This document shows, piece by piece, positions 10,342 through 33,821 of a DNA stretch of 64,000 bases (position 1 is its first letter; each line of letters opens with the position of its first letter). The position numbers and the translations under genes were made by a program. A model generated the notes under the pieces. The model was given only the letters and a program-made list of their open reading frames with translations. It ran no database searches and was not told the origin of the DNA. Source of the stretch: Candidatus Dadabacteria bacterium (GTDB lineage Bacteria > Desulfobacterota_D > UBA1144 > Nemesobacterales > CSP1-2); NCBI GenBank assembly GCA_963805855.1, contig CAWDVW010000006.1, positions 137,693-201,692 of the forward strand. The letters run 5' to 3'.

Positions 10342-10394
10342 ACTCCATGCTCTCATCCTCCTGATTATCTGATATTTAACTAGGGAATTCCCTG

Positions 10395-10930
10395 TAGCTT
10401 GCTATAGGCTTTCGCATCGCCTGTCATTGCAAACACATTCGCATTCCTCAGTGCAGGCTCCGTCAAGCAATCTCATTTTCGGATTGCTTCGTCGCTTCGC
10501 TCCCCGCAAATGTAGATGTTAGATTTTTCATGGACAAAATCCAAAAAATAATAAATTTCCTCGAAATTTACTCATCCGTCATCCTCGAATCTTCCCCGCC
10601 AGAAATATGCGGGGACAAGCTTTATCGGGGATCCATTGTTTAATCTTTTATTTTCTTTGTCTTGATACAAAGAAACAAAAATCAAGGGCTGACAAAAAAC
10701 GCTTGCGTATCGAGCGAATGCGAGATATCTATTGCTATAATTAATTAGTTCTCTCAGTCACTTTGCTCCTTCGAGATGACAGTAATGATTGTCACTTTTC
10801 TTAACGCTTCCGGATTTGATTTTGGCAATTTTTTGAATGCCCATTTAAGATCTAAGATACTGTCCCCGAAATATCTAACATCTACAGCAATGACATTTGA
10901 TACGTTCAGTTTATATTATGATACCCTGCA
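10395..10930 (+). repeat. Noncoding repeat family 1, copy A (about 530 bp) with MITE-like core 10576-10783 and TGnTATAAT box at 10733-10741
   Basis: Near-identical to 16670-16930 and to the reverse complement of 26800-27310; imperfect 13-bp terminal inverted repeats CCGTCATCCTCGAA / TTCGAGATGACAG. Confidence 0.85.
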
Positions 10931-11253
10931 GCTTGCTGCAGGGAGTTTCATTTATAAATATAGCAGGATAAATAGAAAGATAACTACCTATTTAGGTCGA
11001 TTAGAGAGTTTTATCGCCGGCTAAAACGGGGGATTTGATGAATGATATCAGTTCCTATATAATTTCAGACAAATTCTCCCGAGGATGAGATTTGTTTTGG
11101 GAACATACACGATGAACACTCAAGAGTCCTAATATCAAGTTGTTCCCTGTGTGATCATGATCTCAGATAAGCTTTAAGGGCTTCATGTGTTTATCAAACC
11201 GCAATCTTTAAACATTAGTGTAAGGAGCAGGCTAGTACCTTTGGAGGTATGAT

Positions 11254-12015
11254 TTGAACGGAAAAAAACTCATCGTAGCAAATTGGAAGATGAACTTGTT
11301 GCGAAAAGACTCTGAAAAATTTGCTATTAAGGTCGTTGAGCTGATTAAGGATTATACTCCAAACGTTGATGTAGTATTGGCTCCTGCGTATACTTTACTC
11401 GACGTTGTCTATGACGTAATTCATAGAACGGATATTCAACTCGGGGCACAGGATGTGTTTTGGAAGGACTCGGGCGCATTTACAGGAGAGGTTTCTCCGT
11501 ATATGCTAAAGGATGTGGGTTGTGATTGGGCGATTATAGGTCATTCGGAGAGAAGGAATATATTAAAAGAAACTGACAATATGATCCGAGAAAAGATTCA
11601 GGCAACGTTGAAGGCGGGGCTAAAAGCAATTCTTTGTGTTGGTGAGACAGAAGAAGAAAGGGCAAAGGGAAAAACTGTCAAAACTGTTGAGGGTCAATTG
11701 GTCAGCGGTCTGAAGGATCAGGCGTTGGGCGATATTTCAAGTCTTGCGATAGCATACGAGCCCGTGTGGGCTATTGGGACGGGGAAGAATGCGACACCAG
11801 GGGAAATTGCCTATGTTCATTCGGTCATCAAGGATGTATCAAGAGGCATTTTACGAGTATCTGCTGATAAACTAAGAATCCTCTATGGTGGAAGTGTTAC
11901 TCATGAAAATATAAGAGAGATTATCTCAACAGAAAATGTTGATGGGGCTTTGGTTGGTGGTGCCAGTCTTGATGCATATGCATTTTCAAATATAGTAAAG
12001 GTAGCAGGAGATTAA
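11254..12015 (+). CDS. tpiA: Triosephosphate isomerase
   Basis: IGHSERR and AYEPVWAIGTG motifs; TTG start with GGAGG RBS. Confidence 0.95.
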   Translation: MNGKKLIVANWKMNLLRKDSEKFAIKVVELIKDYTPNVDVVLAPAYTLLDVVYDVIHRTDIQLGAQDVFWKDSGAFTGEVSPYMLKDVGCDWAIIGHSERRNILKETDNMIREKIQATLKAGLKAILCVGETEEERAKGKTVKTVEGQLVSGLKDQALGDISSLAIAYEPVWAIGTGKNATPGEIAYVHSVIKDVSRGILRVSADKLRILYGGSVTHENIREIISTENVDGALVGGASLDAYAFSNIVKVAGD

Positions 12016-12021
12016 CGGGAC

Positions 12022-12447
12022 GTGGATATATTAATAACTCTTATTACGGTATTTCATATTGCGATTGCAATATTACTAGTAATAACCGTACTGCTTCAAC
12101 CCGGAAAGGGTGGAGATCTTGGTTCGATGTTTGGCGGCGGCATGTCAGACTCGATATTTGGTTCTAGCGGTGCGGTTCCATTCTTAACAAAGACAACCAG
12201 GGTTCTTGCCGTTCTGTTCCTTGTAACTTCTCTTTCGCTTGGATTTTTCTTAACGAGAGACTATAAATCTTCGGTCGTGAAGGATCAGCCCGCTGCCCAA
12301 ATTCATGACGAGTTTGAAGAATTACCAGGGGCGGCTGAACCCGGAACTCAGGATGTCTCGTCAACGAGTCCCGGGGTGGAGGAGGGGAAATCATCATCGG
12401 CTGATGAAGCATCTGAGACTGTTCCCAAAGGGGATTCTAAGAACTAA
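12022..12447 (+). CDS. secG: Preprotein translocase subunit SecG
   Basis: N-terminal TM plus LLQPGKGGDLGSMFGGG motif; conserved tpiA-secG synteny. Confidence 0.85.
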   Translation: MDILITLITVFHIAIAILLVITVLLQPGKGGDLGSMFGGGMSDSIFGSSGAVPFLTKTTRVLAVLFLVTSLSLGFFLTRDYKSSVVKDQPAAQIHDEFEELPGAAEPGTQDVSSTSPGVEEGKSSSADEASETVPKGDSKN

Positions 12448-12483
12448 ATTCTCTGTATTTTAGTGATGTGGCAACTAAATACT

Positions 12484-12512
12484 TGAATACTTTTGGGTAG
12501 TTGAGTATATTT
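12484..12512 (+). promoter_or_regulatory. Sigma-70-like promoter for the ferredoxin gene
   Basis: TTGAAT (12484-12489), 17-nt spacer, TATATT (12507-12512), about 28 nt upstream of RBS AAGGAGG. Confidence 0.4.
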
Positions 12513-12539
12513 ACTGCTTAATTCAAGGAGGTTATTGAT

Positions 12540-12803
12540 ATGGCCTATATCATTGCTGAGCCCTGTATTACGGTAAAGGATAAATCCTGCGTCGAAGCTT
12601 GCCCCGTGGATTGCATTTATGAAGGGGATGAGCAGCTTTATATCCATCCAGAAGAATGTATTGATTGCGGTGCTTGCGTTGATCCGTGTCCCGTTGATGC
12701 GATATTTCACGAAGATGAACTTCCCGACAAGTGGAAAAGTTTTATTGAGAAGAACAAGAATTTCTTTGAAGGAAAAACTGACTTGGAACCGGCTCGTAAA
12801 TAG
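12540..12803 (+). CDS. 7Fe ferredoxin (FdxA-like, 3Fe-4S plus 4Fe-4S)
   Basis: CxxxxxxCxxxCP and [12 protein letters not shown] cluster motifs, 87 aa. Confidence 0.85.
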
Positions 12804-12929
12804 CATTTGGAAATCCAACGTTTGTTTGCCCACTCTTTTGGTTTCTTTAACTATTAAATCAAACTCAAATTAGATATCTTAAGAGGAGGTATGCCGATTA
12901 AGCATATGCCCCTTCTTATAAATTGATTT

Positions 12930-13637
12930 GTGGCTCGGGATAACCAGTTAAAGAGCACCAAATCCTCACGTGATGCGATGCACAACCTAGACAACGATAT
13001 TGATGCAAAAAAGAAAAGGGTTAAGAGAATATTAGATGTTTTTAGAAAACTGTATCCCAGTCCAAAATGTCACTTGAATTTCAATAGTCCACTCGAGCTT
13101 CTGATTGGAACCATACTTTCAGCTCAATGCACTGATGAAAGAGTAAATCAAGTGACCAGGACGCTGTTCAAAAAGTATAGATCCGCCAGGGATTATGCTA
13201 AAGCAAACCCGCAAGAGCTAGAGAATGACATACGTACAACCGGATTCTTTAGAAACAAGGCAAGGTCGATTATAAAGTGCACCAAAATCCTGGATGAAAA
13301 GTATTCGGGTGAGGTTCCTTTCGTCATGGAAGAACTCACAGAGCTTGATGGAGTCGGAAGGAAGACTGCTAATGTTGTTCTAGGCAACGCTTTTGGAAAG
13401 CCTGCTATAATTGTTGATACACATATTAGGAGGCTAGCGCATAGGTTGGGTCTCTCGAATAAGAAAGACCCGGATAGGATAGAAATCGATATCAGGGATT
13501 TAGTGCCCAGAGATCAATGGACCTATTTCTCACTTGCCCTTGGAGATCACGGCCGAACGATTTGTAAAGCTAGAAAACCGAACTGCGCGGAGTGCAAGAT
13601 TAATCAACTGTGTCCCTCGGCTTGGACATTTGATTAG
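12930..13637 (+). CDS. nth: Endonuclease III (DNA glycosylase/AP lyase)
   Basis: HhH-GPD motif LDGVGRKTANVVL, C-terminal Cx6Cx2Cx5C Fe-S cluster loop; GTG start. Confidence 0.9.
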   Translation: MARDNQLKSTKSSRDAMHNLDNDIDAKKKRVKRILDVFRKLYPSPKCHLNFNSPLELLIGTILSAQCTDERVNQVTRTLFKKYRSARDYAKANPQELENDIRTTGFFRNKARSIIKCTKILDEKYSGEVPFVMEELTELDGVGRKTANVVLGNAFGKPAIIVDTHIRRLAHRLGLSNKKDPDRIEIDIRDLVPRDQWTYFSLALGDHGRTICKARKPNCAECKINQLCPSAWTFD

Positions 13638-13658
13638 ATATTTATTTAAATTGTAGAA

Positions 13659-14627
13659 ATGCAAAAGTTTTTGATGATGAAGAGAAGATACAACGCCTAC
13701 AGCAATTTCCTAAAGGAGAAATTCGGCTGCAGGGTCCATAAGGTTTCTGTAGATATGGGATTTACATGCCCAAACAGGGATGGCAGTATTGCGCTAGGCG
13801 GTTGTGTTTACTGTAATAACGATACGTTTGTTCCCCCTTATGCCCGCGTGCGATTCTCGATGCAGGAACAGATAGAAAATGGGATGAGATATCTGAAAAA
13901 GAGGTTTAAGGCTGAGAAATTTATAATATATTTTCAGGCTTATACAAATACATATGACCGGATTGAGAAATTGGAAAAGTTATACAGGGAATCACTCGGT
14001 TATGGCGATGTTGTGGGTATTGCGGTTGGAACCAGGTCCGATTGCATCGATGAGAAAAAGATGGAATTGTTTGAGGCTTTGGCTGATGAGTGCTTCGTGT
14101 CAGTCGAGTATGGAATAGAATCTATATATGACAAGACCCTGCGTTTTATGAACAGAGGTCATGATTATCAATCTGTCATAGATGCAATTGAGCTTACGAA
14201 GGGAAGAGGAGTACATATTGGGGCGCATATAATCCTGGGCATGCCCACTGAAACTGGAGAAGAGATGCTGCTTATGGCAGAAGAGGTATCAAAGTTGGGG
14301 ATAGACTCATTAAAAATTCACAATCTCCACGTAGTAAAAAATACTCCTCTTGCTGAGATTTACAAAAATTCACCTTTTCATCTTTTCAGTTATCACGAAT
14401 ATATCGATCTTATCACTAGCTTCCTTGAACGTATTTCTCCCGACCTTGTAATTGAAAGGCTATTTACCGACACGCCTGAAGATCTCCTGATAGCCCCTGT
14501 TTGGAACAAGACCCATAATGCGATAATGCGTGCAATAGAGGAAGCGCTTGAATGGAAGAATACTTATCAGGGTAGGTTGTTTAATCACAATGAAAGCTTG
14601 GGGGAAAAGGCTCCCGTTCGTAGATAA
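13659..14627 (+). CDS. Radical SAM protein, TIGR01212 (YhcC-like) family
   Basis: FTCPNRDGSIALGGCVYCN cluster-binding region characteristic of this family. Confidence 0.8.
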   Translation: MQKFLMMKRRYNAYSNFLKEKFGCRVHKVSVDMGFTCPNRDGSIALGGCVYCNNDTFVPPYARVRFSMQEQIENGMRYLKKRFKAEKFIIYFQAYTNTYDRIEKLEKLYRESLGYGDVVGIAVGTRSDCIDEKKMELFEALADECFVSVEYGIESIYDKTLRFMNRGHDYQSVIDAIELTKGRGVHIGAHIILGMPTETGEEMLLMAEEVSKLGIDSLKIHNLHVVKNTPLAEIYKNSPFHLFSYHEYIDLITSFLERISPDLVIERLFTDTPEDLLIAPVWNKTHNAIMRAIEEALEWKNTYQGRLFNHNESLGEKAPVRR

Positions 14628-14722
14628 ATAATTTTTTCAATCGAAATTAATAGAGTTAAAACCTTTTCCGATATTGATCGTATTACCTATTAGGCTTAAA
14701 AAATCAAAAAAATGAGAGTCTG

Positions 14723-15358
14723 TTGACAGATTTTGCCGAAAAGAAAGAGCCCACAGACGAAGAGGCCATGGTTAGGTTTCAAAATGGAGACTCAGCAGCT
14801 TTTGATGTTCTTCTCCACCAGCATAGCGCTGCTATTCTTAGATTTATAATGAATATGATGACAGTTAATAAATCGAATGCTGAAGATCTATTACAAGAAA
14901 TATTCATGAAGGTCATAAAAAATAGAAAGCAATACGATTCAAACAGGAAATTTACCACTTGGCTTTATACCATAGCTAGGAACCGCTGCATAGATTACCT
15001 CAAGGCGGAAAAACACAGGCGCTACAGCTCCCTGGATGCTCCTCTCAATAGTGAGGCTAGCGACGGTTCAGTTCAATTGGAGATTGTTAGAAGCAAAGAG
15101 AAAAATCAGGAAGAAAAAATGATGAATAAGGAGATACGGGCAATACTCAACAGCGGAGTCGAAAATTTAAGAGCAGAGTTTAGGGAGGTCTTTTTGCTAA
15201 GGGAAATCGAGAGCCTTTCTCTTAAAGAGATTGCTGACATTACAAATGTCCCAATCGGTACTGTAAAAAGCCGCCTTAGATATGCTTATTTGAATCTCAG
15301 GGAGATTTTTATTCAGGCTGGTTATTTTGAGGAAGGGCAAATGGCTAAAGGGGTGTAA
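14723..15358 (+). CDS. ECF-type RNA polymerase sigma factor
   Basis: Sigma-70 region 2 (DLLQEIFMKV...WLYTIARNRCIDYLK) and region 4 (LSLKEIADITNVPIGTVKSRL); TTG start. Confidence 0.85.
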   Translation: MTDFAEKKEPTDEEAMVRFQNGDSAAFDVLLHQHSAAILRFIMNMMTVNKSNAEDLLQEIFMKVIKNRKQYDSNRKFTTWLYTIARNRCIDYLKAEKHRRYSSLDAPLNSEASDGSVQLEIVRSKEKNQEEKMMNKEIRAILNSGVENLRAEFREVFLLREIESLSLKEIADITNVPIGTVKSRLRYAYLNLREIFIQAGYFEEGQMAKGV

Positions 15359-15367
15359 AAGGCAATT

Positions 15368-16468
15368 ATGAGTTGTGAGAAATTTGAGGAGCTTTTAATC
15401 GATTTCATAGAGGGTGTAATTGAGCCATCCGATATCGAATTGGTCAAAAAGCATCTTGCCACATGTCAAAACTGTTGTAAAAAGATGGATGAATTTAAGG
15501 AGGTTAGAAAGGTATTTAATGGAGATACCCATCCAGAGCCATCTCCAGAGGTGTTGGCGAGATTATCAAGGATAGCCAGAGAAGAGTTAGAAAAAGATAA
15601 TGTTCCCTTCTGGAGGAAGTGGTTTTATTCTCCAATTTTAGTTCCAGTCCTTAGTGCTGGTTTGGCACTGGGTATATGGATTTCCTATGGCCAAAAAGAT
15701 GTGAGGTATGGTCCCGATGACGCAATATACTCAACGGAGGTTATGGCTAAAAAGATGCCTAGGGCACAAGAGTCGCATTTCCGAGCCGTTCGGGAAGAAG
15801 CTGTTCCAAATTTAGAATCCAATCAAGGTCTGTCATTGTCTGATGAACCCGTCTCTGCGCCTTATCTCGCTTCCGGAAAGAAAAGCAGAATCGAAGAAGA
15901 AACGACAACAAGATCTGGCGAGCCTGCTCCTGCCAAAGAAGTGATTGCCAGAGGGGATATCAAAGAAGATGATGAATATTCCCTGCACAGAGATGAGGTT
16001 TCTGACAAGTTGGAAGCTAAAGCAATTGAAGAACCGGCTTCGGGACCGAAAATTGAAGCTGAAGAGGAGGCTTTTGAAGTTGGATCACTGTCGAAAGGAA
16101 TATCTGGTGAGACAGAAGAGCAGAGGTCCCAAGAAGTTAAGCAAAAATCCAATATACCGACCTCATATTCATATACTGAAACGGCCTATAAAGATAAATT
16201 GGATTTAGGGCTCAAGCAGCAAAAAGAAGGGAACTGTGAGGCATCTATAAAGACGAATGAAGGGCTTGTTAATGTAACACCACCTCCAACGGACCCAATA
16301 ATGGGAAAAGCTTACCTTTCCTTAGGCGAGTGTTATGAGCAACTGCGAGAGTGGGACAAGGCTGTAATTAGTTATAAAAATCTCCAGAAGATATCTCCGG
16401 AGCAGACTGCTTTTGCTTTAGATAAAATCGAATACATCAAGCGGCAAACGAGGATTTTAAAGAAGTAG
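15368..16468 (+). CDS. Putative anti-sigma factor (zf-HC2 type) with TM helix and C-terminal TPR-like domain
   Basis: N-terminal HLATCQNCC zinc-finger motif, one TM segment, directly downstream of the ECF sigma. Confidence 0.7.
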   Translation: MSCEKFEELLIDFIEGVIEPSDIELVKKHLATCQNCCKKMDEFKEVRKVFNGDTHPEPSPEVLARLSRIAREELEKDNVPFWRKWFYSPILVPVLSAGLALGIWISYGQKDVRYGPDDAIYSTEVMAKKMPRAQESHFRAVREEAVPNLESNQGLSLSDEPVSAPYLASGKKSRIEEETTTRSGEPAPAKEVIARGDIKEDDEYSLHRDEVSDKLEAKAIEEPASGPKIEAEEEAFEVGSLSKGISGETEEQRSQEVKQKSNIPTSYSYTETAYKDKLDLGLKQQKEGNCEASIKTNEGLVNVTPPPTDPIMGKAYLSLGECYEQLREWDKAVISYKNLQKISPEQTAFALDKIEYIKRQTRILKK

Positions 16469-16669
16469 CGACGGAAGATGCCGAACAATCCAAGCGCAAT
16501 CGAGGGATTGCTTTAGTTATTTCACTCCCTCGCAAATTGAAGCAATCCCATTAGTCAGGATTATTACGAGAGGGCCACACGAGATGAGCACTGAGTCAAT
16601 CGACGTGCTCGCAATTTTAAAAACCAGATATTTCCGGGATAAGATCTTTAAGAGTATTTTCTTAATTTA

Positions 16670-16930
16670 TCTTTTTTTTCTTTCTAACTTCTTTGTCTTG
16701 ATACAAAGAAGCAACCCTTCGACTGTGCTCAGGACAAGGGCTTACAAAAAACGCTTGCGTATCGAGCGAATGCGAGATATCTATTGCTATAATTAATTAG
16801 TTCTCTCAGTCACTTTGCTCCTTCGAGATGACAGTAATGATTGTCACTTTTCTTAACGCTTCCGGAATTGATTTTGGCAATTTTTTGAATGCCCATATAA
16901 GATCTAACAGACTGACCACTAAATATCTAA
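16670..16930 (+). repeat. Noncoding repeat family 1, copy B (shorter, lacks left arm)
   Basis: Shares about 230 bp with copies A and C, including the TGCTATAAT box. Confidence 0.85.
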
Positions 16931-17196
16931 CTTCTGCAATGACTGCAAGGACTTGATCTAAAATTGAAGATACCATGCTGCTTGCTGCGGGGGCTTGCTC
17001 AATTTGACATAGTTCAATATGGGGCTGAAGTCGCTCCCACTTTCTGAATTATCCTAAAAAGTAAATCATCACTTTTTTTATTTAAAATCCCTCGGTAGTG
17101 TTATTTTGTGACAATCTGTGGCTGAAAGAATTCATTCATTTTAAAACCTTTCTTAAGTTCATTCGTATTAATCCATAAAATCCAAAAAAAGAGGGA

Positions 17197-17868
17197 ATGG
17201 AAATGGCATTAAAAAATCGGATGGGGTTTCTCATCAAATCACAGCTCAACCACTTGGTGACAAGATCTGAAGACCCTGAGAAAGTCATTAATCAGGCGGT
17301 AGAAGAGATTGATGATGGGCTGGAAAGTGCAAGATCAAGACTATCAGCACTTAAATTCAGAGTGGAAGAAGATCGACGTCTGCTAGAGAGGATCGGGGAG
17401 CAAATTTCCTATTGGGAGGAAAAGGCAGAACGGTTTATCGAAGATGATATGGAAGAAAATGCAAAAGAAGCGGTGAGGATGAGAAGAATCCTAGAAGGGC
17501 AACAGTGGGATATAAAGATCAGGCATGTAGAAGATGAAGAGAGGCTTAAAGAAATGGGTATTTCGCTTAAAGAGCTCGAAACCAGGGCACAGGTGGTAAG
17601 GGCCAAAAGAAATATTCTTATTAAAAAAATGAGTCTGGGTAAAGGTGAAACACATGAGGGAAGGGAAAAAAGGGATATAACTTTCGGTATCGAAGTTAAA
17701 GAACCTTTCAGCGTTTTCCACAAGATGGAAGAAAGGATAGAAGGCGAGGAAGGGTTCGATTATTTATTCCATGATAAGCAAAGGGAGATGTGGGAAAAGG
17801 AGGAGAATCTCATCAATGAGGAAATTGCAAGAATAAAAAGAAAAATAAAAAAGGAGGGAGAAAAATGA
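17197..17868 (+). CDS. pspA: PspA/IM30/Vipp1-family protein
   Basis: N-terminal LNHLVTRSEDPEKVINQAVEEIDDGL... coiled-coil typical of PspA; RBS GAGGGA. Confidence 0.8.
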   Translation: MEMALKNRMGFLIKSQLNHLVTRSEDPEKVINQAVEEIDDGLESARSRLSALKFRVEEDRRLLERIGEQISYWEEKAERFIEDDMEENAKEAVRMRRILEGQQWDIKIRHVEDEERLKEMGISLKELETRAQVVRAKRNILIKKMSLGKGETHEGREKRDITFGIEVKEPFSVFHKMEERIEGEEGFDYLFHDKQREMWEKEENLINEEIARIKRKIKKEGEK

Positions 17869-19244
17869 TACGTAAAAGAAAATCGTTATTGTTATTTTTT
17901 TTAGGGACGTTTGCCTTTCTGGTCGGGGCTAGGTACATAGTAGCATTTCCAAAAATTTCTCATCCGTTAAATTCGACCACGGATAGTGTCATATGGAACG
18001 TCGGATTGAACCGGCCATTTTTACAGAGGGGTTCGAATAGTGAGGTTTTGCTAAACTTAAAAATAAAGGGGCAGGAATTTAGCTCCCACCAAAGGGCTCC
18101 TGTAAATCTTGTTCTTGTTATTGATAGAAGTGGTTCGATGAGTGATAGTGGAAAGCTGGAGTATGCTAAAGACGCAGCGAAAACTATTATTTCAGGACTG
18201 GCAAGCAAAGATCGACTATCAGTTGTTGCATATTCTACTGGGGTTCAGCTGCTATATCCTATTCAGTATTTAAGGGATAAAGAAAGAGCTATATCAGTAG
18301 TTGATTCCCTGTATCCCACTGATTCGACAAACCTATCTGGAGGGTTGATCATGGGGATTGATCAGTTAAGGTCGCTTGAGAGCAGCGATTACATTAACCG
18401 GGTAATTTTACTCTCAGATGGATTGGCGAATGTTGGTATAACAAGCGCAGCCGAACTCAGTCGCGTCGCCAGTCAGGCGGCTGAAAGAGGGATCCATGTA
18501 ACTACTATGGGACTTGGATTACACTATGATGAAAACCTTATGATGAACCTGGCTGAACACGGTGCGGGAAACTACTACTTTATTGAGTCTCCAACACAGC
18601 TCGCAGGCATTTTCAAAAAGGAATTCGGTCAAATGCTTGCAACAGTGGCAAAGGATTCCGTGATAAATCTTTCTCTATCCCCTGAGGTTGAGCTTAAAGA
18701 AATTTTTGGATACACACACACAACAAAAGATGGTTTTATTCAGATCAATTTGGGCGATCTGTACAGCGGACAGGAAAGAAACATCTTGATTAAATTGAAT
18801 GCACCGACAGGTAGCATAGGAAAACATCAGCTTGTTAACGCTTCATTAGAGTTTACCGACATATTGAACAATAACCACAATGTCAAATTAGAGAAGAAAC
18901 TTGCCTATCAAGTAACAGAGGATAAAACCAAGGTAATGGCTAACGAGGATAAAAAGATTTCTGCCAGGGGTTCTTCAGTAAATGCAGCGTACGACCTCTA
19001 CCGAGCCACCACTGAATACGAAAAGGGAAATAGAAGGGATGCTCTAAGTAGAGTCAAAAGGGCATTACAGAGTGTAGTTGAAATTAATAACTCTCCTCAA
19101 AAGAGCGATGATACAGTGAAGCAGGAAGAGGTTCTTAGAGGTGCAATGGAAGTTCTTGCAGACGAAGCTCTAGCTCCAGGTACACCATCAGGAAAGAAGA
19201 TAATAAAGGAATACAAAGCAGAGTCGAGAGAACAGCAGAAATAG
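17865..19244 (+). CDS. Membrane-anchored von Willebrand factor type A (VWA) domain protein
   Basis: N-terminal TM; MIDAS-type motifs LVIDRSGSM and LLSDGLAN; 4-nt overlap with pspA. Confidence 0.8.
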   Translation: MIRKRKSLLLFFLGTFAFLVGARYIVAFPKISHPLNSTTDSVIWNVGLNRPFLQRGSNSEVLLNLKIKGQEFSSHQRAPVNLVLVIDRSGSMSDSGKLEYAKDAAKTIISGLASKDRLSVVAYSTGVQLLYPIQYLRDKERAISVVDSLYPTDSTNLSGGLIMGIDQLRSLESSDYINRVILLSDGLANVGITSAAELSRVASQAAERGIHVTTMGLGLHYDENLMMNLAEHGAGNYYFIESPTQLAGIFKKEFGQMLATVAKDSVINLSLSPEVELKEIFGYTHTTKDGFIQINLGDLYSGQERNILIKLNAPTGSIGKHQLVNASLEFTDILNNNHNVKLEKKLAYQVTEDKTKVMANEDKKISARGSSVNAAYDLYRATTEYEKGNRRDALSRVKRALQSVVEINNSPQKSDDTVKQEEVLRGAMEVLADEALAPGTPSGKKIIKEYKAESREQQK

Positions 19245-19316
19245 TGTTGTTAGTTATCCATAATGTAGAGTGGTTTTTTCGATTGTCACGGTGAAAAGTT
19301 CATGGTTTCTTGGGAT

Positions 19317-19344
19317 AGGCGGGGTTTTCCAACCCCGCTTTTCC
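19317..19344 (+). terminator. Rho-independent terminator after the pspA-VWA operon
   Basis: GCGGGG-TTTTCCAA-CCCCGC followed by TTTTCC. Confidence 0.6.
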
Positions 19345-19518
19345 TTATATCAGAATTTAGTCTTGAAAATACGGGGCTGGAAAGTACCGTCTATCCATCG
19401 TGAGTTACGGTGAGTAGATCAATTAGAAAAATGTATTGGGACAAGGGTAAATATTCGTTAGCTAGCTACTTACCGATCATAATTATTAGTTAATAGCAAG
19501 CTATGTGGAGCGCAATTT

Positions 19519-20118
19519 ATGAAAAATAAACTAAAATCTTTTTTGGTTCCAATGATTATCGGTGGACTGTGGGGAGTTGTTATCTATCTTGTTTCTTCGC
19601 TAATTTTTTCTACTTTCCCTATTGCTTCTTCTCTTTTCTTTCCAGTTCTTTTTGGGGGTATTGCTGGAATTTTTTCGATTTGCGTCAGGACTGGGATTTC
19701 TGTCGAAAGAGCTATAATCGTTGGATTGTTGGCAGGGTCTATCTATAATCTACTTTCTCCGATTTTTCCTTTATTTGCATCAATTTTAGTTGGTGCCTGT
19801 ATAGGAGCAGGTTTAGGAAGGGGTTCAGGAAAAATTTTTAAGCTTCTAGATACATTGGTAAGAGCGATGAAGGGGGTCTTACTGTTCCCGATATTGATTT
19901 TTTTTGGGAATTTAGTTTCACAGTTTGGTTTCAGTATTTTTAATTCTAGTACTGTTGTTTGGTTTATTTGGGGATTTTTACTTTTTTTTGCAATCTATGT
20001 AACTTGTGCTCCATTTTTAGATAGCTGTAGATCAGAGGGAGATCGAGATACCTATATTATGTTAGATGAAATTAAAAGAGAAAGTCAGGGAATACTTGAG
20101 GAAATGCGTCGCTTGTGA
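19519..20118 (+). CDS. Integral membrane protein (Gly-rich TM helices), function unknown
   Basis: About 6 hydrophobic segments; no recognisable motif. Confidence 0.5.
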   Translation: MKNKLKSFLVPMIIGGLWGVVIYLVSSLIFSTFPIASSLFFPVLFGGIAGIFSICVRTGISVERAIIVGLLAGSIYNLLSPIFPLFASILVGACIGAGLGRGSGKIFKLLDTLVRAMKGVLLFPILIFFGNLVSQFGFSIFNSSTVVWFIWGFLLFFAIYVTCAPFLDSCRSEGDRDTYIMLDEIKRESQGILEEMRRL

Positions 20119-20204
20119 AATACCTATTAATAAATAAAATTGCGGTTGACATTACTCATTTTCTTTTAAATGGTGTAAAATAAGGGCAAGAAGGAGGAAA
20201 ATTC

Positions 20205-20654
20205 ATGAGAAAGTTGTATGTGTTAGCAATACTTTTGATAATTACTTCTTTTGCCTTATCTGCGAAACAAACCCAATCCCAAATGGGATATGAACCTGAG
20301 ACCGGCACAACAGCAAAAGAAAGGGAGAGAATTAAAAGAGACGTACAGGAAGTTATAAAAGAAAAAATGCCCGAGGTAAAACAAAATCCACAAAGATTAT
20401 ATTGTGCGGCATTATGGAATGCTTATTATGAGAAAGAAGGTTTGGAAATCCAGGTATTGACGCGAGGAGTGCACGATGAAGTCGTGGTATTTAGGTGTCC
20501 TGACTGCAGTTTGGAGAAAGAATTTGTAGATACCTTTTTAGTTTCGGAGTATCAAGGCAAAACCGGGATGGAGAGAATAAAAGAATGCGGGTTTTTAGTG
20601 GCGATCTTTAAAGGGGGGAGGGGAATACAGGAGATCATTAAACAAGTTCAGTGA
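20205..20654 (+). CDS. Secreted hypothetical protein
   Basis: Signal peptide; strong RBS AAGGAGG. Confidence 0.5.
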   Translation: MRKLYVLAILLIITSFALSAKQTQSQMGYEPETGTTAKERERIKRDVQEVIKEKMPEVKQNPQRLYCAALWNAYYEKEGLEIQVLTRGVHDEVVVFRCPDCSLEKEFVDTFLVSEYQGKTGMERIKECGFLVAIFKGGRGIQEIIKQVQ

Positions 20655-21041
20655 GTTTGGGGATACATGTTATTAGATCTGCTCTTTTGTTCGTGTAGGG
20701 GAAATCTCAATAGAAGAGGAAATGGTTCGAGCGTCGGTTTTAAGACCTCGCTGATGCATAGTTAATAGAGATCATTCGAAATTGCGGTATTCATTTTTTT
20801 CAATTCTCCGTGTCAACAATATAAAGATAATTAAAGATAAACCAACTGAATGATCTTTTTGGCTAATCTGTTTAGACTTTTTGGATTTTGACCTATAACT
20901 TATAACATAAATACGATGAAGAGTAATGTGACTTTTTCCACGTATCATGACGCAATTATAGCCTGAAAGAATGATGATTTATGCGGATGGATTCATCGTT
21001 GGTTTGATCTGTAACTCTCTATTAGCAGGGAGGCTATTTTA

Positions 21042-21272
21042 TTGAGTAAACCAGTGACTTTTCCTTTCGGTTGGATCAGAGACCTGGACGGTGAGAATTG
21101 GCAGCTCTTGTGGAATCCTGAGACGGGTATTTTTTTTGCAAAAGGGGCGATTTCAAAAAGGGTAATCAATTTAGGGGAGTCATCTAACTGGGTTGATGCA
21201 AAAGCCTTAGCCGATAAGGTTCAAAATGAAGCACAGATATATAGTCAAATATTGATCAATGAAAGCCCTTAG
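21042..21272 (+). CDS. Hypothetical small protein
   Basis: TTG start with GGGAGG RBS; no motif. Confidence 0.3.
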   Translation: MSKPVTFPFGWIRDLDGENWQLLWNPETGIFFAKGAISKRVINLGESSNWVDAKALADKVQNEAQIYSQILINESP

Positions 21273-21476
21273 ATTCATTCTTAGCTATCCTTTGCACTTT
21301 TTCTATCATACAATAACCAAGCTGATGATAATACTGTATCGACAGTTAATAGCGAAGACAGGCTTAGAATCTGGCTTATTTTCTGATATAACGTTGCCAA
21401 CAATATATTGGCCATTTAAATAAGTATTTAAATTTCATGTGTCTTTCTGGTTTGATATAAAAATCTTTCGTATTTT

Positions 21477-22415
21477 TTGTTGTTCTGGAATATATTATTT
21501 TTGGATCATGATATGAAGTTCATGGAGCAAGAACTAATCTCTATCCCCTATGACGGGGGTAAAATAGATGCACTGCTTTACCGCAGCACGGCTGAAATGC
21601 AGGGATCCGAGAAAGAGCCAATAGTTGTTCACATCCATGGCTTCCTGGGTAATTTTTTAGATGGGAGCCAGCGCTTCTTACCGCCGATCCTTGCTAGGGC
21701 TGGTTTTTCTTCAATATCTGTCAATACGAGAATGGCGAATTTTGGCCTATTTTTTGGTTACGGACTGCTTGATGATACCATACCCCAAATAGATCGAGTT
21801 GTAATATATTTAAAGGAACTTGGTTACACCAAAATCATCTTATCGGGATATAGTCTCGGGACCAGCATTGTTCTTAGATACGCTTCTATAAGAAATGATC
21901 CATCAATATACCCTTCTTTAAAAGGTGTTGTCTCACTTGCAACACCTTACTCTATGCCTAATTCAATCCGTCGTCGTTGGGATAGATGGGGTAGTAAGCC
22001 TGCATATCAACAAGTGTATGAGGAGGCTAAAGAGATACTGAAGCCTGATCCATACCATTCGACTGAGGACCGTACTATTCTCATATATAGGGCGAGAGGG
22101 GATTCATACAGGCCCGAGCATACAGAGATCTATACTTACAAGACTTGGTGGTTTCTAGCTGGACCGGAAGCCGAAACTGCTCAAGCATATAAGAAAATGG
22201 AGAGGATAAAGATCCCAATACTTCTAATTCAAGGCTGGTATGACGACGTAGTTAACCCGCAAGAGTGCTATGATTTGGCCCGCGTTGCCCTGAACGCGGG
22301 AAACGAAGATGTCTCCGCATTATACGTGAACGCGGGTCACACTTTTGAGGGAAAAGAGGAGGAGCTGGGGGATATTATCATTAGATGGCTTAACAGAAGA
22401 TTTAGAAATATTTAA
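21477..22415 (+). CDS. Alpha/beta-hydrolase fold protein
   Basis: Nucleophile elbow GYSLG, HGF oxyanion region. Confidence 0.7.
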   Translation: MLFWNILFLDHDMKFMEQELISIPYDGGKIDALLYRSTAEMQGSEKEPIVVHIHGFLGNFLDGSQRFLPPILARAGFSSISVNTRMANFGLFFGYGLLDDTIPQIDRVVIYLKELGYTKIILSGYSLGTSIVLRYASIRNDPSIYPSLKGVVSLATPYSMPNSIRRRWDRWGSKPAYQQVYEEAKEILKPDPYHSTEDRTILIYRARGDSYRPEHTEIYTYKTWWFLAGPEAETAQAYKKMERIKIPILLIQGWYDDVVNPQECYDLARVALNAGNEDVSALYVNAGHTFEGKEEELGDIIIRWLNRRFRNI

Positions 22416-22439
22416 GCTCGACCATTATCAATACTTGAT

Positions 22440-23366
22440 ATGACTGAAAGACGACGGAGTTTAATTAATTTTCACGCCCGTGACGGATTCCTAATTCATT
22501 CGCTATTGATAGCTGATCGATTCGAAAATGAAGAAGATCTCTATGAAACACCAATCGTTATACAGGTTCATGGTGTCTTAGGAAACTTTCTCGCCCGTGG
22601 CACTCCGCGGCTCCTACCCTCAGCTTTGCTGGAACGGGGTTACAGCTCGTTCGTCATTAATACACGCATGGCATTCCTAGGGCAGATCATGGGAGAAGGG
22701 ATTTTTGATGAAGCAATTTATGACATAGAAGCCTCGATTGATTATCTTACCAGGGTAGGCTATCGAAATATTTTTATCTTGGGATATAGCCTAGGAGCAA
22801 ACATAGTGGCATATTATGCTTCAGAAAGGTTTGATTCAAATGTAATGGGTTTAATCCTCGAGGGATGCGCCTATTCTCTACCCGATTCCCAGCAGAAGCG
22901 ACTTAAGAAATGGAATAGCATTCCTTCATACGACGAAGTTTATAAGAGGGCGAAGAAGATTTTGAAACCAGATCCATATAATACGAAGAATGATCAGATT
23001 TTTGTCATATATCGGGCGTGGGCGCCGTCATTCAATCCGCTGGATGCAGAACTGTTTACGTATAGGACATGGTGGTTTATGAGAGGGCCGGAGGCTTATA
23101 GTGCGAAAACATGTGATTTGATAAACAATATAAAGGTTCCGGTACTTTTTATACAGGGCGCAAATGACGATATTGTTGAAGAATGGGAGTCTAAAGAATT
23201 GGCGCGTAGGGTTTATGAATCAGGTAATAATAATGTTACATTAAGATATATAACTAATGCCAAACATGACTGTATGGAGAATCCGGACGAAACTATCGAC
23301 ACGATCGTTGAGTGGATTGCGAAAATGGGGAAAAAGCCCCTACCTGTTTCCAAAGCCAAGAGTTGA
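22440..23366 (+). CDS. Alpha/beta-hydrolase fold protein, tandem paralog of 21477-22415
   Basis: Same architecture, GYSLGANIV, collinear similarity to upstream gene. Confidence 0.7.
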   Translation: MTERRRSLINFHARDGFLIHSLLIADRFENEEDLYETPIVIQVHGVLGNFLARGTPRLLPSALLERGYSSFVINTRMAFLGQIMGEGIFDEAIYDIEASIDYLTRVGYRNIFILGYSLGANIVAYYASERFDSNVMGLILEGCAYSLPDSQQKRLKKWNSIPSYDEVYKRAKKILKPDPYNTKNDQIFVIYRAWAPSFNPLDAELFTYRTWWFMRGPEAYSAKTCDLINNIKVPVLFIQGANDDIVEEWESKELARRVYESGNNNVTLRYITNAKHDCMENPDETIDTIVEWIAKMGKKPLPVSKAKS

Positions 23367-23411
23367 ATTTTTACTTACTTTTATTGATCTCAGAAGATAA
23401 ATTAAGCGGAG

Positions 23412-23729
23412 GTGAATATTATGTTTTATTTCGTATACTTTGACCCGAAGGAAGGTGTTAGGAGAGACAATATAGTGAAAGCCTATAGTAAGTATGCCGA
23501 ATACTTTAGAAACAAAGTACCACGATTTAATTATATAGGACTTTATGGACGAAATGCACTACTCGGATCAAGGCCACACTATGTGGCGATTTGGGAATTT
23601 TCAAATTACTCAGATCTCGATGAATGGAACAGGGTCTTTGGAGGCGATAAAAAGGGGCAGAGGCTAGCCAGGGATTTACGTGATTTGACTATCGATTGGG
23701 AAGCGAAGATTATGTCAAAGTTGGCATGA
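23412..23729 (+). CDS. Hypothetical small protein (possibly dimeric alpha/beta-barrel-like)
   Basis: ORF with GGAGG RBS; an ATG at 23421 may be the true start. Confidence 0.45.
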   Translation: MNIMFYFVYFDPKEGVRRDNIVKAYSKYAEYFRNKVPRFNYIGLYGRNALLGSRPHYVAIWEFSNYSDLDEWNRVFGGDKKGQRLARDLRDLTIDWEAKIMSKLA

Positions 23730-23806
23730 TAGTCACCTATATTCTAATTTCATTTTCTATTTAGCAATTCTCGGGTGAGGCGATAGATTCTCGATCGGAA
23801 TGACAT

Positions 23807-24256
23807 ATGCGTAAACTTATATCAGCCTTGTTTATTTTTTTAGTTTTATCATCCAACGGTGGGTCCGTCGAACCTTCAAATAAGAATCCAATGATCCAAC
23901 ATCCGGAGTGGTACATTAAGATTTTAGATTGGTCTTTTTATGTCGCTTGGGGTGGAGTAGCAATCATACAAAATGTAGCAATCGAGAACACTAGTAGTGT
24001 TGGATACCAAGACATAAAAGTGAGGGTAAATTATTATTCTACAACGGGCTCGAATTATGGTATCCAAGTTGGGCAGGAGATTGGGTTTTTACCCGTAACA
24101 CTGCCTCCAAAAAGCAAAAAACATTTATCTAAAAGATGGCGCAATATTAGGACTCGGCTCCACAAATTTAAGAGCCGGAGCTATCGAGGTTTTAAGTGCG
24201 GTTCCTTTGATTCAGTAAAATCAGATGTTCAGAGTAGATGTTTGATACTCGTGTAG
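23807..24256 (+). CDS. Small secreted protein, paralog family (member 1)
   Basis: Signal peptide; shares HPEWYIK--DWSF--AWGGVA-I-NV-IENT---Y-DI---NYYST block with 34131-34586. Confidence 0.55.
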   Translation: MRKLISALFIFLVLSSNGGSVEPSNKNPMIQHPEWYIKILDWSFYVAWGGVAIIQNVAIENTSSVGYQDIKVRVNYYSTTGSNYGIQVGQEIGFLPVTLPPKSKKHLSKRWRNIRTRLHKFKSRSYRGFKCGSFDSVKSDVQSRCLILV

Positions 24257-24303
24257 ACAGCAAAAAGAGGTGTCTCTAAAGATGAAAAAGAGGAGGGGTC
24301 CGG

Positions 24304-26133
24304 ATGGATATCCCAAATTATGTAGAAAATCGAAAGCTTCAAAATTGGATTCACGAAATGGTCGCTCTGTGCCAACCGGGCAAAATTCACTGGTGCGACG
24401 GTTCAAATCAGGAGTATGATGCCATGTTCGATTCGATGGTAGAGTCAGGGACGGCCGTCAGGCTGGCTGAAGAGAAAAGGCCCAACAGTTACTTGGTAAG
24501 GTCTGACCCGAGTGATGTGGCTCGCGTAGAAGGGCGAACGTTTATTTGCAGTAAAAGCAAGAGTGATGCGGGTCCTACAAACAACTGGATGGATCCGAAG
24601 GAGATGAAAAAAACTCTGCTCGATCTGTTTGACGGTTCCATGCAGGGTCGAACAATGTACGTCATTCCTTTCAGTATGGGGCCTTTGGGCTCGCCAATTG
24701 CCCGTATCGGTGTGCAGATTAGTGATTCACCTTACGTCGTTGCTAACATGCGCATCATGACGCGCATGGGAAAACCAGCACTTGATATACTTGCGGATGA
24801 AGAATTTGTACCATGTATCCACTCAGTTGGCATGCCGCTAAACAATGGTCAGAATGACGTGCCCTGGCCATGCAACACGACAAAGTATATCGTGCATTTC
24901 CCCGAAGAACGCTCTATCTGGTCGTATGGGAGCGGTTATGGTGGAAATGCACTTTTAGGGAAGAAATGTTTAGCACTGAGAATAGCCTCTATTCTTGCCA
25001 GAGACGAGGGTTGGTTAGCGGAGCACATGCTCATTTTGGGAGTAGAATCTCCTGAAGGAGATAAGACATACGTGACGGCTGCATTTCCCAGTGCATGTGG
25101 CAAGACCAACTTCGCCATGCTAATTCCTCCTCCAGCATTTGAGGGATGGAAAGTGACCACTGTAGGGGATGACATAGCATGGATAAAGCCGGGCGGTGAC
25201 GGATATCTCTATGCGATAAATCCAGAGTTTGGATACTTTGGAGTAGCCCCCGGCACTTCCGAAAAATCGAATCCGAATGCGATGGCTGCCCTTAGCCGAA
25301 ATTCGATCTTTACAAACGTTGCGCTGACTGATGATGGTGACGTCTGGTGGGAAGATATGACCGATAATCCTCCAGACCATCTTATAGATTGGACAGGACG
25401 GGATTGGACACCTGGTTGTGGAAGACCGGCAGCTCATCCGAATGCTCGCTTCACCGCACCTGCAAGCCAAAATCCCGCCATTGATCCCGATTGGGAAAAT
25501 CCGAATGGAGTCCAAATAAAAGCAATTATCTTTGGTGGTCGGAGAAGCAAAGTGGTTCCTCTAATATATCAGTCATCCAATTGGAATTACGGGGTCTACT
25601 TGGCAGCCACGATGGGTTCCGAGACAACCGCCGCCGCTGTAGGAGCAGTTGGAGAAATCCGACGTGATCCCTTTGCGATGTTGCCCTTCTGCGGTTATCA
25701 CATGGGTGATTATTTTAACTATTGGTTGGATTTTGGAAGGAAGATTCTCAATCCGCCGCGTATTTTCGGAGTTAACTGGTTCCGCAAGGATGACGATGGT
25801 AATTTCCTCTGGCCGGGTTTTGGAGAAAACATGCGAGTATTGAAATGGGTTGTAGACCGCGCGAACGGTCGTGCTCACGGTGTTGAAAATCCTATTGGGC
25901 GGGTTCCTCGCTACGAAGATATCGACTGGCGTGGATTGAAAAACTTCAGTCGTAAGAAATTCCAGGAACTAATGGCGGTGGATCGTGATGAATGGAAAGA
26001 GGAGATTCTTTCTCACGAGGAGCTGTTTATTAAGTTATACGATAAGTTGCCGAAGGAGCTTATCTTCATCCGTGAATTGATACTGTCAAGTCTTTGGCGG
26101 TCTCCAGAAGGCTGGGATGTAGTTTCTGAATAA
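24304..26133 (+). CDS. pckG: Phosphoenolpyruvate carboxykinase (GTP)
   Basis: Kinase-1a motif [11 protein letters not shown]; 609 aa; RBS AGAGGAGG. Confidence 0.95.
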
Positions 26134-26196
26134 TCGGCGGCGGATCGGTCGTGCCGTCGCATTCTACTAACGCCCGATATGTTTCTATACCTTGTA

Positions 26197-26784
26197 TCAC
26201 GGTCTCAGATAGCCGGGGGGTACCCCCGCGCGCCGCGCTTCTTCTTGTAGCTTCTCCCTTTCGGGCTTTATAAAACCCAGTTTGAATTCGAGTTGCTTAA
26301 TCCGGTCTTCCAGATTTCTAAGCTCAAGTATTGAACGATCTGCAAAGTACCCGTTGGTAAGCATGTAATCTACTTCTCTTTTCTTATACGTGATTAGATT
26401 TCTCGTGAGCGAAATGTCTTCCAAAATCCTTTTTTCTTCGTTATCAATCTCGAGTGCGCGACTTCTCCAGTACTCTCTTATAGCTTCTTCTTCATCAATT
26501 TCTAAATCTTCTTCAACGCCGTTCAACAAATCATCAGAGGGTGTGGGGGTTGGTAGGTTAGATTTAATTCGATTTTGCGAATGTTTCTTTTTTACCTCCT
26601 CAATAATCTCGACCTCAACTCCACTATCTTTTGGAATTAGCGAGGGATTGTCTGTGAAATGGACTTTTCCCATTTCATCAGTCCATTTATAAATGTCGTT
26701 TGCGTTTGCAAGTTGAGGGACTAAACTCAGAAATAAAATTCCGCATGTTGTGGTCAGAATGTTAGGAAGGAATTTTTTGCACAT
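26197..26784 (-). CDS. DUF4124-domain secreted protein
   Basis: Signal peptide followed by IYKWTDEMGKVHFTD motif; coiled-coil C-terminus. Confidence 0.65.
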   Translation of the reverse strand: MCKKFLPNILTTTCGILFLSLVPQLANANDIYKWTDEMGKVHFTDNPSLIPKDSGVEVEIIEEVKKKHSQNRIKSNLPTPTPSDDLLNGVEEDLEIDEEEAIREYWRSRALEIDNEEKRILEDISLTRNLITYKKREVDYMLTNGYFADRSILELRNLEDRIKQLEFKLGFIKPEREKLQEEARRAGVPPGYLRP

Positions 26785-26799
26785 GCTTTAACTACCAAA

Positions 26800-27310
26800 T
26801 CGCCCGCAGCTTGCGACAGGCTTTCCGCTGTCATGGCAGTGGCACGCACCGCACAGTCATTGCTGCAGATGTTGGATATTTCGTGGACAGTATCTTAGAT
26901 TTTAAATGGGCATTCAAAAAATTGCCAAAATCAATTCCGGAAGCGTTAAAAAAAGTGACAATCATTACTGTCATCTCGAAGGAGCATAGTGACTGAGAGA
27001 ACTAATTAATTATAGCAATAGATATCTCGCATTCGCTCGATACGCAAGCGTTTTTTGTTAGCCCTTGTCCTGAGCACAGTCGAAGGGTTGTTTCTTTGTA
27101 TCAAGACAAAGAAAATAAAAGATTAAACGATGGATCCCCGATTAAAACATTCGAGGATGACGGATGAGTAAATTCCCAAGAAATTTGTCAGTTTTAGGAT
27201 TTTGTCCACGAAATATCTGACACTTACAATTGCGAGCACTTCGACCCGCCTGTGCTGAGTAAAATTGAAGTACTCAGTGCAGGCTCCGGCGAAGCAATCT
27301 GCCACATAAA
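26800..27310 (-). repeat. Noncoding repeat family 1, copy C (inverted orientation)
   Basis: Reverse complement matches copy A over about 450 bp, including both arms and the TATAAT box. Confidence 0.85.
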
Positions 27311-27486
27311 TACTATAATCGACTGAAATCCGTGCGAGACGCTCTGCCCGTGTTGAAGGAGATTGCTTTGGGACTGCCGAAGTCCCTTTGCTCCAGGGTC
27401 ATTCATTTTTTTATCGCTAATTACGATATTTAGTATAACCTGTTAGGATTTGAATGTTGGAATTCAGAGGGGGGGTTTAAAATATT

Positions 27487-32710: not shown

Positions 32711-32743
32711 TTAAACCAAGCTTAACAAAAGGGGAGCGGTACA
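32711..32743 (+). repeat. Island boundary motif copy 1 (consensus TTCCAACTTAAACCGAGCTTGACAAAAGGGGAGCGGTACA)
   Basis: One of five same-orientation copies. Confidence 0.8.
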
Positions 32744-33738: not shown

Positions 33739-33821
33739 TATGGAATTATATAAATTTCACAAATGTAATCCACAAATAAACTTAAATGTGCTCTGCTTAA
33801 TTGTAGCCGAGACAAATTCAA

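Follow-up and report, generated by a model that had tools for sequence, protein, structure and literature searches.

The DNA analysed here, referred to as the window, is a stretch of 64,000 nucleotides from contig CAWDVW010000006.1 of a Candidatus Dadabacteria bacterium. Six copies of a repeat family, with element sizes of 240-616 bp, lie in these 64 kb: three long copies (A, B and C), a core-deleted copy (D) and two short elements (E1 and E2). They are genuine copies of a mobile DNA element that carries no gene. The genes downstream of the three long copies are unrelated (they encode triosephosphate isomerase, a PspA-like protein and a DUF4124 protein), which rules out that the repeats are leaders or promoters of paralogous genes. 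No open reading frame (ORF) is conserved in the elements, as the original prediction for this DNA had stated; an 82-aa ORF at 10776-11024 is restricted to copy A, and a small protein as the product of the element is thereby ruled out. We suggest, with a probability of about 0.6, that the family consists of non-autonomous elements mobilised in trans by a Y1 (HUH) transposase (TnpA) of the IS200/IS605 type, similar to the palindrome-associated transposable elements (PATEs) of other organisms.

Copies of the family within and beyond the window

In a self-comparison of the window, gapless matches link 10683-10886 to 16735-16938 (95% identity, same orientation), 16682-16938 to 26864-27120 (94%, inverted) and 10683-10894 to 26856-27067 (96%, inverted), and a three-way alignment of A, B and C lengthens the shared part beyond these matches. 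When 17 distinct copies of the core were made into an nhmmer profile, its full matches in the window were A, B and C only (E-values 1e-78 to 1e-84), together with weaker partial matches at 45019-45134 and 49327-49440. The three long copies proposed earlier therefore exist, with extents corrected to 10380-10952, ~16500-17004 and 26792-27407. Copy A (+, 573 bp) comprises a left arm, nested modules, a core bounded by inverted repeats (IRs) and a right arm. Copy B (+) has its core at 16682-16938, a micro-insert at 16717-16735, a right-end (RE) hairpin at 16973-16992 and its RE terminus at 17004, and has no recognisable left end (LE). Copy C (+, 616 bp) runs from its LE at 26792 to the RE terminus ..TCATTCATT at 27407; its core (26856-27120) is inverted relative to that of A, and both of its terminal hairpins are degenerate.

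A fourth copy, in which the core is deleted, had been missed in the earlier list of five. Copy D (45018-45254, -) belongs to a second subfamily, has degenerate 34-bp IRs at ~45023-45058 and ~45200-45236, and is marked by TTCTTTGTCTTGATAC at 45140-45155. The top strand of E1 (47425-47796) is the minus strand, with the LE at 47796 and the RE end at 47425; its arms are of the types found in A, its internal modules differ, and a TGTCATCTCGAA..TTCGAAATGACA unit occupies 47535-47647. E2 (49320-49559, +) combines a TTCTTTGTCTTGATAC module at 49331 with the TGTCATCTCGAA..TTCGAAATGACA unit, an RE hairpin and the terminus TTATTCGTT. The motif TTCGARATGACA occurs eight times (0.76 expected by chance) and is found in both short elements, in agreement with the proposal that these are two short relatives of the long copies. 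The TTCTTTGTCTTGATAC module had been assigned to both of them as well; it is present in the 49.3-kb element and not in 47505-47667.

The family is not confined to the five sites first listed. An exact 22-mer of the core matches three contigs of one Thermodesulfobacteriota metagenome-assembled genome (MAG), JBAUII01, in which the flanks of the copies do not match the window. Metagenome copies were collected with an exact 20-mer from the core, which retrieved 32 loci with ~26 distinct family members, many of them at contig ends (related loci carry L numbers below). In JBAUII01 and at these ~26 distinct loci the copies sit in unrelated contexts. Two metagenome contigs (L007 and L011) independently reproduce copy B and its flanks at 99.9% identity, and the metagenome contigs that carry the aminotransferase gene of the window all end 53-120 nt into copy A. 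Given the 22-mer and 20-mer matches, the reproduction of copy B and the contig breaks, the family is genuine, exists in multiple copies and occurs in more than one species of this kinship. Excess conservation of the copies across species was considered and ruled out, as window and JBAUII01 copies are 82-94% identical and orthologous DNA is ~90% identical.

That the copies are artefacts, in which repeats were collapsed or chimeric contigs assembled, is a practically negligible possibility. Metagenome assemblies often break or mis-join at the repeat, and two loci (L021 and L024) have one flank in common and a different second flank. However, the long copies differ from each other by single-nucleotide changes and indels, their flanks are unique, copy B is found with both flanks in independent contigs, and the family recurs across several studies and in a GenBank MAG.

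Orthologous sites, ends and mode of movement

Relatives were traced via homologs of the triosephosphate isomerase (TIM) protein of the window (85-91% identical). They share a gene order of HU, deformylase, aminotransferase, tpiA, secG and onwards, and the spacer between the aminotransferase gene and tpiA measures 912 bp in the window as against 329-351 bp in the relatives. The absence of copy A was assessed in five relatives with 80-90% DNA identity and conserved gene order. Copy A is missing from the spacer in L039/L040/L042, L043, L044 and L048, with synteny kept, and corresponds to one clean 573-bp insertion at 10380-10952. BLAST homology to L045 and L048 ends at 10379 and resumes at 11014 and 10965, respectively. 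With the junction given as a slash, the empty sites read ..ATTTAA/TATAA.. in L039 and ..ATTTAA/TCTGA.. in L048. There is no target-site duplication (TSD) at copy A: the window has ATTTAA, the 573 bp and then TATAAAT, the empty site of L039 has ATTTAA/TATAAC, and no base is duplicated. E1 is present in L050 and missing in L052 (85-94% identical around the site), and no TSD is discernible at E1 relative to L052, where the alignment is looser and the junctions are blurred by divergence.

Given that copy A and the 47.4-kb element E1 are missing in close relatives whose gene order is unchanged, the element has moved. Together with the unrelated contexts of copies elsewhere, this bears out the original view of a non-autonomous transposable element. 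At other sites the relatives hold rearranged material. The site orthologous to that of B carries a different, shorter mosaic with the same RE in L048, and the sites orthologous to that of E2 carry different mosaics, again with the same RE, in L010 and L050; the modular shuffling proposed earlier is thus seen between related species. Empty sites could be obtained neither for B, whose site in L048 is occupied by the other mosaic, nor for C, which lies inside an indel block relative to L045. Site D retains only a repeat-like remnant of ~35 nt in L050 and L052. Because the relatives keep this remnant, D is not a clean insertion, and its site was rejected as proof that the unit with the 34-bp repeats moves independently; the TSD reading there is ambiguous.

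The anatomy of the ends was derived from an alignment of six LE and thirteen RE junctions. The LE consensus, from the first base of the element, is CTAnnnAATT-CCCTGTAGC-TT-GCTACAGGG-TTTC..GTCATTGC, and the RE consensus, up to the last base, is ..TTTCAGTTTCTATTATGATA-CCCTGCAGC-TT-GCTGCAGGG-AGTTTCATT; at the thirteen RE junctions conservation ends after ..CATT. The left arm of A (10380-10430, +) has the terminus CTAGGGAATT and a hairpin, CCCTGTAGC-TT-GCTATAGG, at 10390-10409, followed by ..GTCATTGC. Its right arm (10895-10952, +) leads from ..TTCAGTTTATATTATGATA through the hairpin CCCTGCAGC-TT-GCTGCAGGG at 10924-10943 to the terminus AGTTTCATT, and was flagged as terminator-like by a consensus scan. 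The tips are asymmetric (LE CTAGGGAATT versus reverse complement of RE AATGAAACT), in that neither of CTAnnnAATT and AGTTTCATT is the inverse of the other. Read on the same strand, the loop of the RE hairpin is CTTG in all 13 REs; that of the LE hairpin is CTTG in three of the six LEs, CTCG in one and CTTA in one, with no clear loop in L029 and CAAG in none. The stems differ by one compensated pair (GTAGC/GCTAC in the LE, GCAGC/GCTGC in the RE). The polarity of the two hairpins, which are 250-500 bp apart, is therefore direct and not inverted.

A TTTAA pentamer abuts the LE of copy A in the flanking DNA, outside the element (10375-10379, +), and another lies 5' of the LE of copy C (26787-26791, +). 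The pentamer is TTTAA in A, C and L019, TTCAA in L030 and TTTGA in E1, so that TTYRA precedes five of the six LEs (P ~1e-9 given a local background frequency of 0.011 at each position, for a motif defined post hoc). The flanks of the thirteen REs have no shared pattern. Because TTTAA is present in the empty sites of copy A, it belongs to the target. In IS608 a guide rule describes pairing between sequence beside the LE hairpin and the target motif. Here GAATT, the 5 nt before the LE hairpin, is position-wise complementary to TTTAA in A and E1 and shows no covariation in L030, and we regard this pairing as a lead only. In A, B, C and E2 the top strand is the plus strand, where GC skew is positive (four of the five orientable elements, too small a sample for a strand bias); this may reflect targeting of the lagging-strand template.

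The lack of a TSD, the one-sided AT-rich pentamer, the hairpin ends on the same strand, the relation between TTCAT and TTTAA and the gene-less copies all argue for trans-mobilisation of the IS200/IS605 type. In this group insertion always places the left end 3' of a tetra- or pentanucleotide, and excision releases the top strand in the form of a single-stranded circle (PMC5027513). Subterminal palindromes, motifs adjacent to the transposon (TAM) or encoded by it (TEM) and gene-less PATE derivatives have been described (PMC10055086), and the TAM and TEM of ISGst elements differ at the same positions, 3 and 5, as do the TTTAA on the LE side and the TTCAT at the RE of our family (PMC10055086). 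The mobile unit would extend from the left arm (CTAnnnAATT and a GC hairpin) to the right arm (a GC hairpin and AGTTTCATT). A Y1 (HUH) tyrosine transposase encoded elsewhere may recognise both subterminal hairpins on one strand and cut in the left flank, 3' of the TTTAA-like motif, and at the right end, 3' of ..TTCATT. A single-stranded circle would then be released and pasted 3' of another TTTAA, and the target would not be duplicated. Both the identity of this enzyme and its single-strand chemistry are predicted from the form of the ends and sites.

PATEs, the gene-less IS200/IS605 derivatives of Geobacillus stearothermophilus and haloarchaea, are alike in having no protein gene and many copies presumably moved in trans, distinct LE and RE whose subterminal hairpins both lie on one strand, and insertion 3' of an AT-rich pentanucleotide (the TAM) with no target duplication and with two positions at which the TEM departs from the TAM. 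Unlike in PATEs, no parent insertion sequence (IS) or TnpA with matching ends was identified here, the arms hold a 34-bp IR around a conserved and apparently invertible core, and the mosaic of nested small modules is unusually rich, with no link to omega-RNA or TnpB shown.

The original prediction likened the family to miniature inverted-repeat transposable elements (MITEs). As classical MITEs, the copies would be deletion derivatives of an IS with a DDE transposase and would move by cut-and-paste via terminal inverted repeats (TIRs), either the 34-bp repeat or the whole ~95-nt arms. We consider this unlikely. In most copies the 34-bp IR, GTCATTGCTGTAGATGTTAGATATTTCGTGGACA, does bound a core of ~245 bp; in A it lies at 10511-10542 (+), with its outer 8 nt displaced to 10423-10430, and at 10861-10894 (+). 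A long single-strand stem results when the whole element is folded (z = -4.6), and copy D, which is largely missing in L050 and L052, has these repeats only. MITEs are defined by TIRs and a TSD, and size, intergenic location and lack of an ORF are part of their description (PMC3184786). The family fits the latter, being small and multi-copy with no transposase gene, but has neither TIRs at its tips nor a flanking TSD. The clean insertion A is bounded by the hairpin-bearing arms and not by the 34-bp repeat, which lies ~55-130 nt inside the insertion boundary, and the arms of E1 are of the same types. The outermost termini are not inverted repeats of one another, the hairpins are direct, the conserved pentamer is on one flank only, the remnant at site D speaks against a clean unit there, and no transposase with these repeats was seen. 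The missing TSD, the TTTAA on the left and the asymmetric ends with hairpins on the same strand thus fit IS200/IS605 elements rather than MITEs. The TIRs first proposed, CCGTCATCCTCGAA (10576-10589, +) and TTCGAGATGACAG (10770-10782, +), do form an inverted repeat that is present in A and C. They are internal, however, and do not form the ends of the element, and copy B lacks the left one, CCGTCATCCTCGAA.

The promoter-carrying Correia elements of Neisseria, also MITEs, offer a comparison. Both families consist of short gene-less intergenic repeats with long stem potential and an internal promoter-like box, and in both the presence of copies differs between strains and insertions lie near gene starts. 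Correia elements, however, have true 26-bp TIRs and a TA duplication, whereas the termini of our family are asymmetric, with no TSD seen and a flank motif on one side.

Several observations weigh against mobilisation by an IS200/IS605-type enzyme. Copy A is the only clean empty site able to exclude a TSD, and one of the six LEs, that of L029, is preceded by TAGTC and is an exception to the pentamer rule. Copy D is without hairpin arms. Further in from the tips, the arms are largely inverted-repeat-like (hairpin and 34-bp repeat), in the fashion of MITEs. Mismatches in the hairpins show no consistent top-strand preference, and for the LE of C the opposite strand gives the better fold; a top-strand bias of G-T wobble pairs, judged by eye, was mixed and is not used. 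Core identity is 84-100% per 10-nt bin and mostly at least 91% (14-25 copies per bin), as against 80-90% for the 34-bp repeats, but this apparent excess is biased because the copies were retrieved with an exact core 20-mer. The cognate transposase with matching ends that the original prediction envisaged was found neither in the window nor in ~250 kb of related loci, and the single Y1 gene of the window is flanked by a 20-nt IR unrelated to the family ends.

This Y1 gene (30927-31886, -) encodes a protein of 319 aa with a Y1_Tnp (IS200-like) domain and a DnaA_C domain (a C-terminal helix-turn-helix). The flanking IR, GGGGTCAAATCTTTTGTTTA, is perfect, lies at 30923-30942 and 31920-31939, and is unique in the window. 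The gene sits in a variable island and has more than 2,000 homologs, mostly alone on contigs of 1-2 kb, like a multi-copy IS. There is no tnpB, iscB or compact tnpA in the window. Other candidate partners were rejected. An ORF between two copies in L024 appears to be alpha/beta-hydrolase-like cargo (its translation was judged by eye), with no transposase between the copies, and IS3, IS256 and integrase genes near copies have ends that are not common to the family. In a related MAG, JBAUII01, a compact Y1 transposase gene (L002, 4048-4760) lies between GTAG-tagged palindromes (GTAGGCACGAATTTATTCGTGC and related), a textbook arrangement of a RAYT (a REP-associated tyrosine transposase) with its repetitive extragenic palindromes (REPs).

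It is very unlikely that the family is made of REPIN-like elements (REP doublets) moved by a domesticated RAYT such as the Y1 gene of the window. GC-rich palindromes of ~20 nt occur at both ends and no TSD is seen, the Y1 protein scores 75.9 bits against the RAYT model NF047646, just below the cut-off of 80, and the related MAG contains a bona fide RAYT with GTAG-tagged REPs. REPs, REPINs and the bacterial interspersed mosaic elements (BIMEs) of E. coli also resemble our family in the likely HUH-type enzyme and the mosaics of motifs. However, the hairpins of REPINs are inverted and tens of nt apart, carry a GTAG/CGTC tag, and belong to a RAYT flanked by its own REPs. Here the two hairpins are direct and 250-500 bp apart, no GTAG/CGTC tag lies outside the stem, the Y1 gene of the window is flanked by an unrelated repeat, in a variable island, and has IS-like homologs, and the REP of L002 was not found in the window.

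The core, its promoter-like box and the smaller modules

In copy A the conserved core common to all long copies spans 10650-10860 (+). Relative to LE and RE it is forward in seven elements and reverse in five, with its position constant, and inversion through the 34-bp repeats would be the most economical explanation. It is co-oriented with neighbouring genes in a ratio of 14:5 (P = 0.06). An extended -10-like box, TGCTATAAT (TGnTATAAT), lies at 10733-10741 (+), and TTGCTATAAT, at 10732-10741 in A, is found in A, B and C, as had been predicted for the three long copies. Among the 17 aligned copies the box is intact in nine, altered in six and absent or replaced in two (L010 and L019). It is the most variable stretch of the core, more so than the sequence to its right; a consensus promoter scan did not list it, because it lacks an accompanying -35 element. 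The perfect palindrome TTCTTTGT-CTTGAT-ACAAAGAA (10653-10674, +) lies upstream of the putative transcription start. Compensatory changes are seen in this helix alone (T-A to C-G in five sequences, T-A to A-T in two), and its loop tolerates a 23-nt insert in three of the 17 copies (L001, L019 and L026).

The core could be a multi-copy small RNA (sRNA) gene that reaches from TGnTATAAT to, or just past, the hairpin of the right arm, either regulatory or a scaffold for TnpB or IscB of the omega-RNA kind, with the element as its vehicle. In copy A the box is followed, ~190 nt on, by a terminator-like hairpin with a T-rich tail; the orientation of the core towards neighbouring genes would fit as well, omega-RNAs are often encoded by PATEs (PMC10055086), and TTTAA would then be the TAM. 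Nevertheless, we find an sRNA gene quite improbable. The box varies more than any other part of the core, and two copies lack it. The core occurs in both orientations with respect to LE and RE, with which a guide RNA in fixed linkage to the RE is incompatible. The predicted sense transcript folds no better than shuffled sequences (z = -1.1, as against -2.7 for the antisense), the covariation term of RNAalifold is essentially nil (-0.02 kcal/mol), and beyond the putative start no helix covaries; the upstream palindrome alone does. In Rfam the window has no match at the gathering threshold, on which ground a known RNA family was rejected, and 10350-11000 has only chance-level matches at E-values up to 10. 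Both tnpB and iscB are lacking in the window, and copy C has no terminator-like site. With a variable box, a sense fold like that of shuffles, covariation only upstream and no Rfam match, a structured sRNA was rejected and the predicted sRNA gene family finds no support.

The interior of the elements may be regarded as fast-evolving cargo, consisting of the core in either orientation, smaller IR units, hairpin modules and micro-inserts of 19-23 nt, with nesting, deletion and exchange between copies reshuffling the parts. The copies differ by discrete inserts, and module combinations differ at orthologous sites (those of B and the 49.3-kb element). A nested hairpin module, AAGCAATCTC..GGATTGCTT (10464-10490, +), lies in an insert of ~80 nt that splits the left 34-bp IR of A. 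The corresponding module, AAGCAATCYC..GRGATTGCTT with a loop of 8-60 nt, is found with each long copy (10464-10490, 16504-16549 and 27291-27369), is also present in L052 (10568-10666) and recurs in a related MAG. The TGTCATCTCGAA..TTCGAAATGACA unit, free-standing in E1 and E2, is nested inside the core in L013.

The micro-insert CTTCGAC-N4-CTCAGGAC, of 19-23 nt, has seven matches where 0.05 are expected. It is found at 16717-16735 (+) and 27049-27067 (-) in the window, and in L003, L005, L031, L050 and L002. It occurs in at least four distinct contexts and in both orientations, as an indel inside otherwise conserved repeats, and the window and L050 differ by it in their orthologous E1 copies. 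It may therefore be a very small mobile or recombinogenic unit. Small dispersed repeats of Nostoc and other cyanobacteria are 21-27 nt long. Such repeats receive a passing mention in PMC3116915. The micro-insert resembles them as an indel inside conserved repeats in both orientations; it differs in phylum and sequence, and its mobility is suggested by few sites.

A more far-reaching possibility is that the core is a functional cassette on a single-strand transposon, either an invertible promoter or sRNA module whose orientation towards neighbours is selected or a trans-acting guide scaffold for TnpB or IscB, with the micro-inserts as independent ultra-small mobile DNA in a non-cyanobacterial phylum. 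We regard this combination as a long shot. The promoter-like box or the terminator-like right arm may have an effect on neighbouring genes.

Surrounding genes and implications

Copies B and C lie in or beside blocks that vary between relatives. The region 14641-20390, with genes for an extracytoplasmic function sigma factor, an anti-sigma factor, a PspA-like protein and a VWA protein, is missing in L045 (84% identical) and present in the closer relative L048. The region 23731-26194, with a 149-aa ORF and a gene for GTP-dependent phosphoenolpyruvate carboxykinase, is also missing in L045. The ATG of the 195-aa DUF4124 ORF (26197-26784, -) is 7 nt from the LE of copy C and has no evident ribosome-binding site, and the homolog in L045 has only 75 aa. 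Copy C may, on insertion, have altered the gene's 5' end; alternatively, the start of the gene may be mis-called.

A block of higher GC content (45-51%) at ~31900-42750, beside tRNA-Glu and tRNA-Lys genes (42753-42909), has the look of an integrated island. It contains IS3-family fragments (38209-39251), truncated enzyme genes, several long IRs (for example 34986-35225 versus 40308-40546) and a 46-nt repeat with TTGACAAAAGGGGAGCGGTAC four times (32699, 34612, 39941 and 42390); an integrase is found at the corresponding place in a relative (L050). Elsewhere, two tandem 300-nt units at 2630-3283 (92% identical, spacing 354 nt) lie inside an ORF (2623-3423, -) with a weak match to a planctomycete cytochrome c domain, and the BNR-repeat ORF next door (1258-2445) has four diverged 53-nt repeats. 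A 400-aa bacterial eRF1-like (baeRF) protein encoded at 45373-46575, which databases label as a release factor or a host attachment protein, is conserved across the lineage; its homologs at 59-62% identity are labelled Dadabacteria, and homologs of two proteins of the lineage, at 50-62% identity, carry this label.

The family is abundant and had not been described before; it consists of non-autonomous elements with hairpin ends in an uncultured lineage of sediments (Thermodesulfobacteriota), and it explains the fragmentation of short-read assemblies of these genomes. The defined TAM (TTTAA) and the ends can be used to find matching TnpA, TnpB or IscB genes. If the core is transcribed, the family would exemplify, in nature, how peel-and-paste transposition can spread a cassette with a promoter or an RNA; if not, it would be ordinary selfish DNA.

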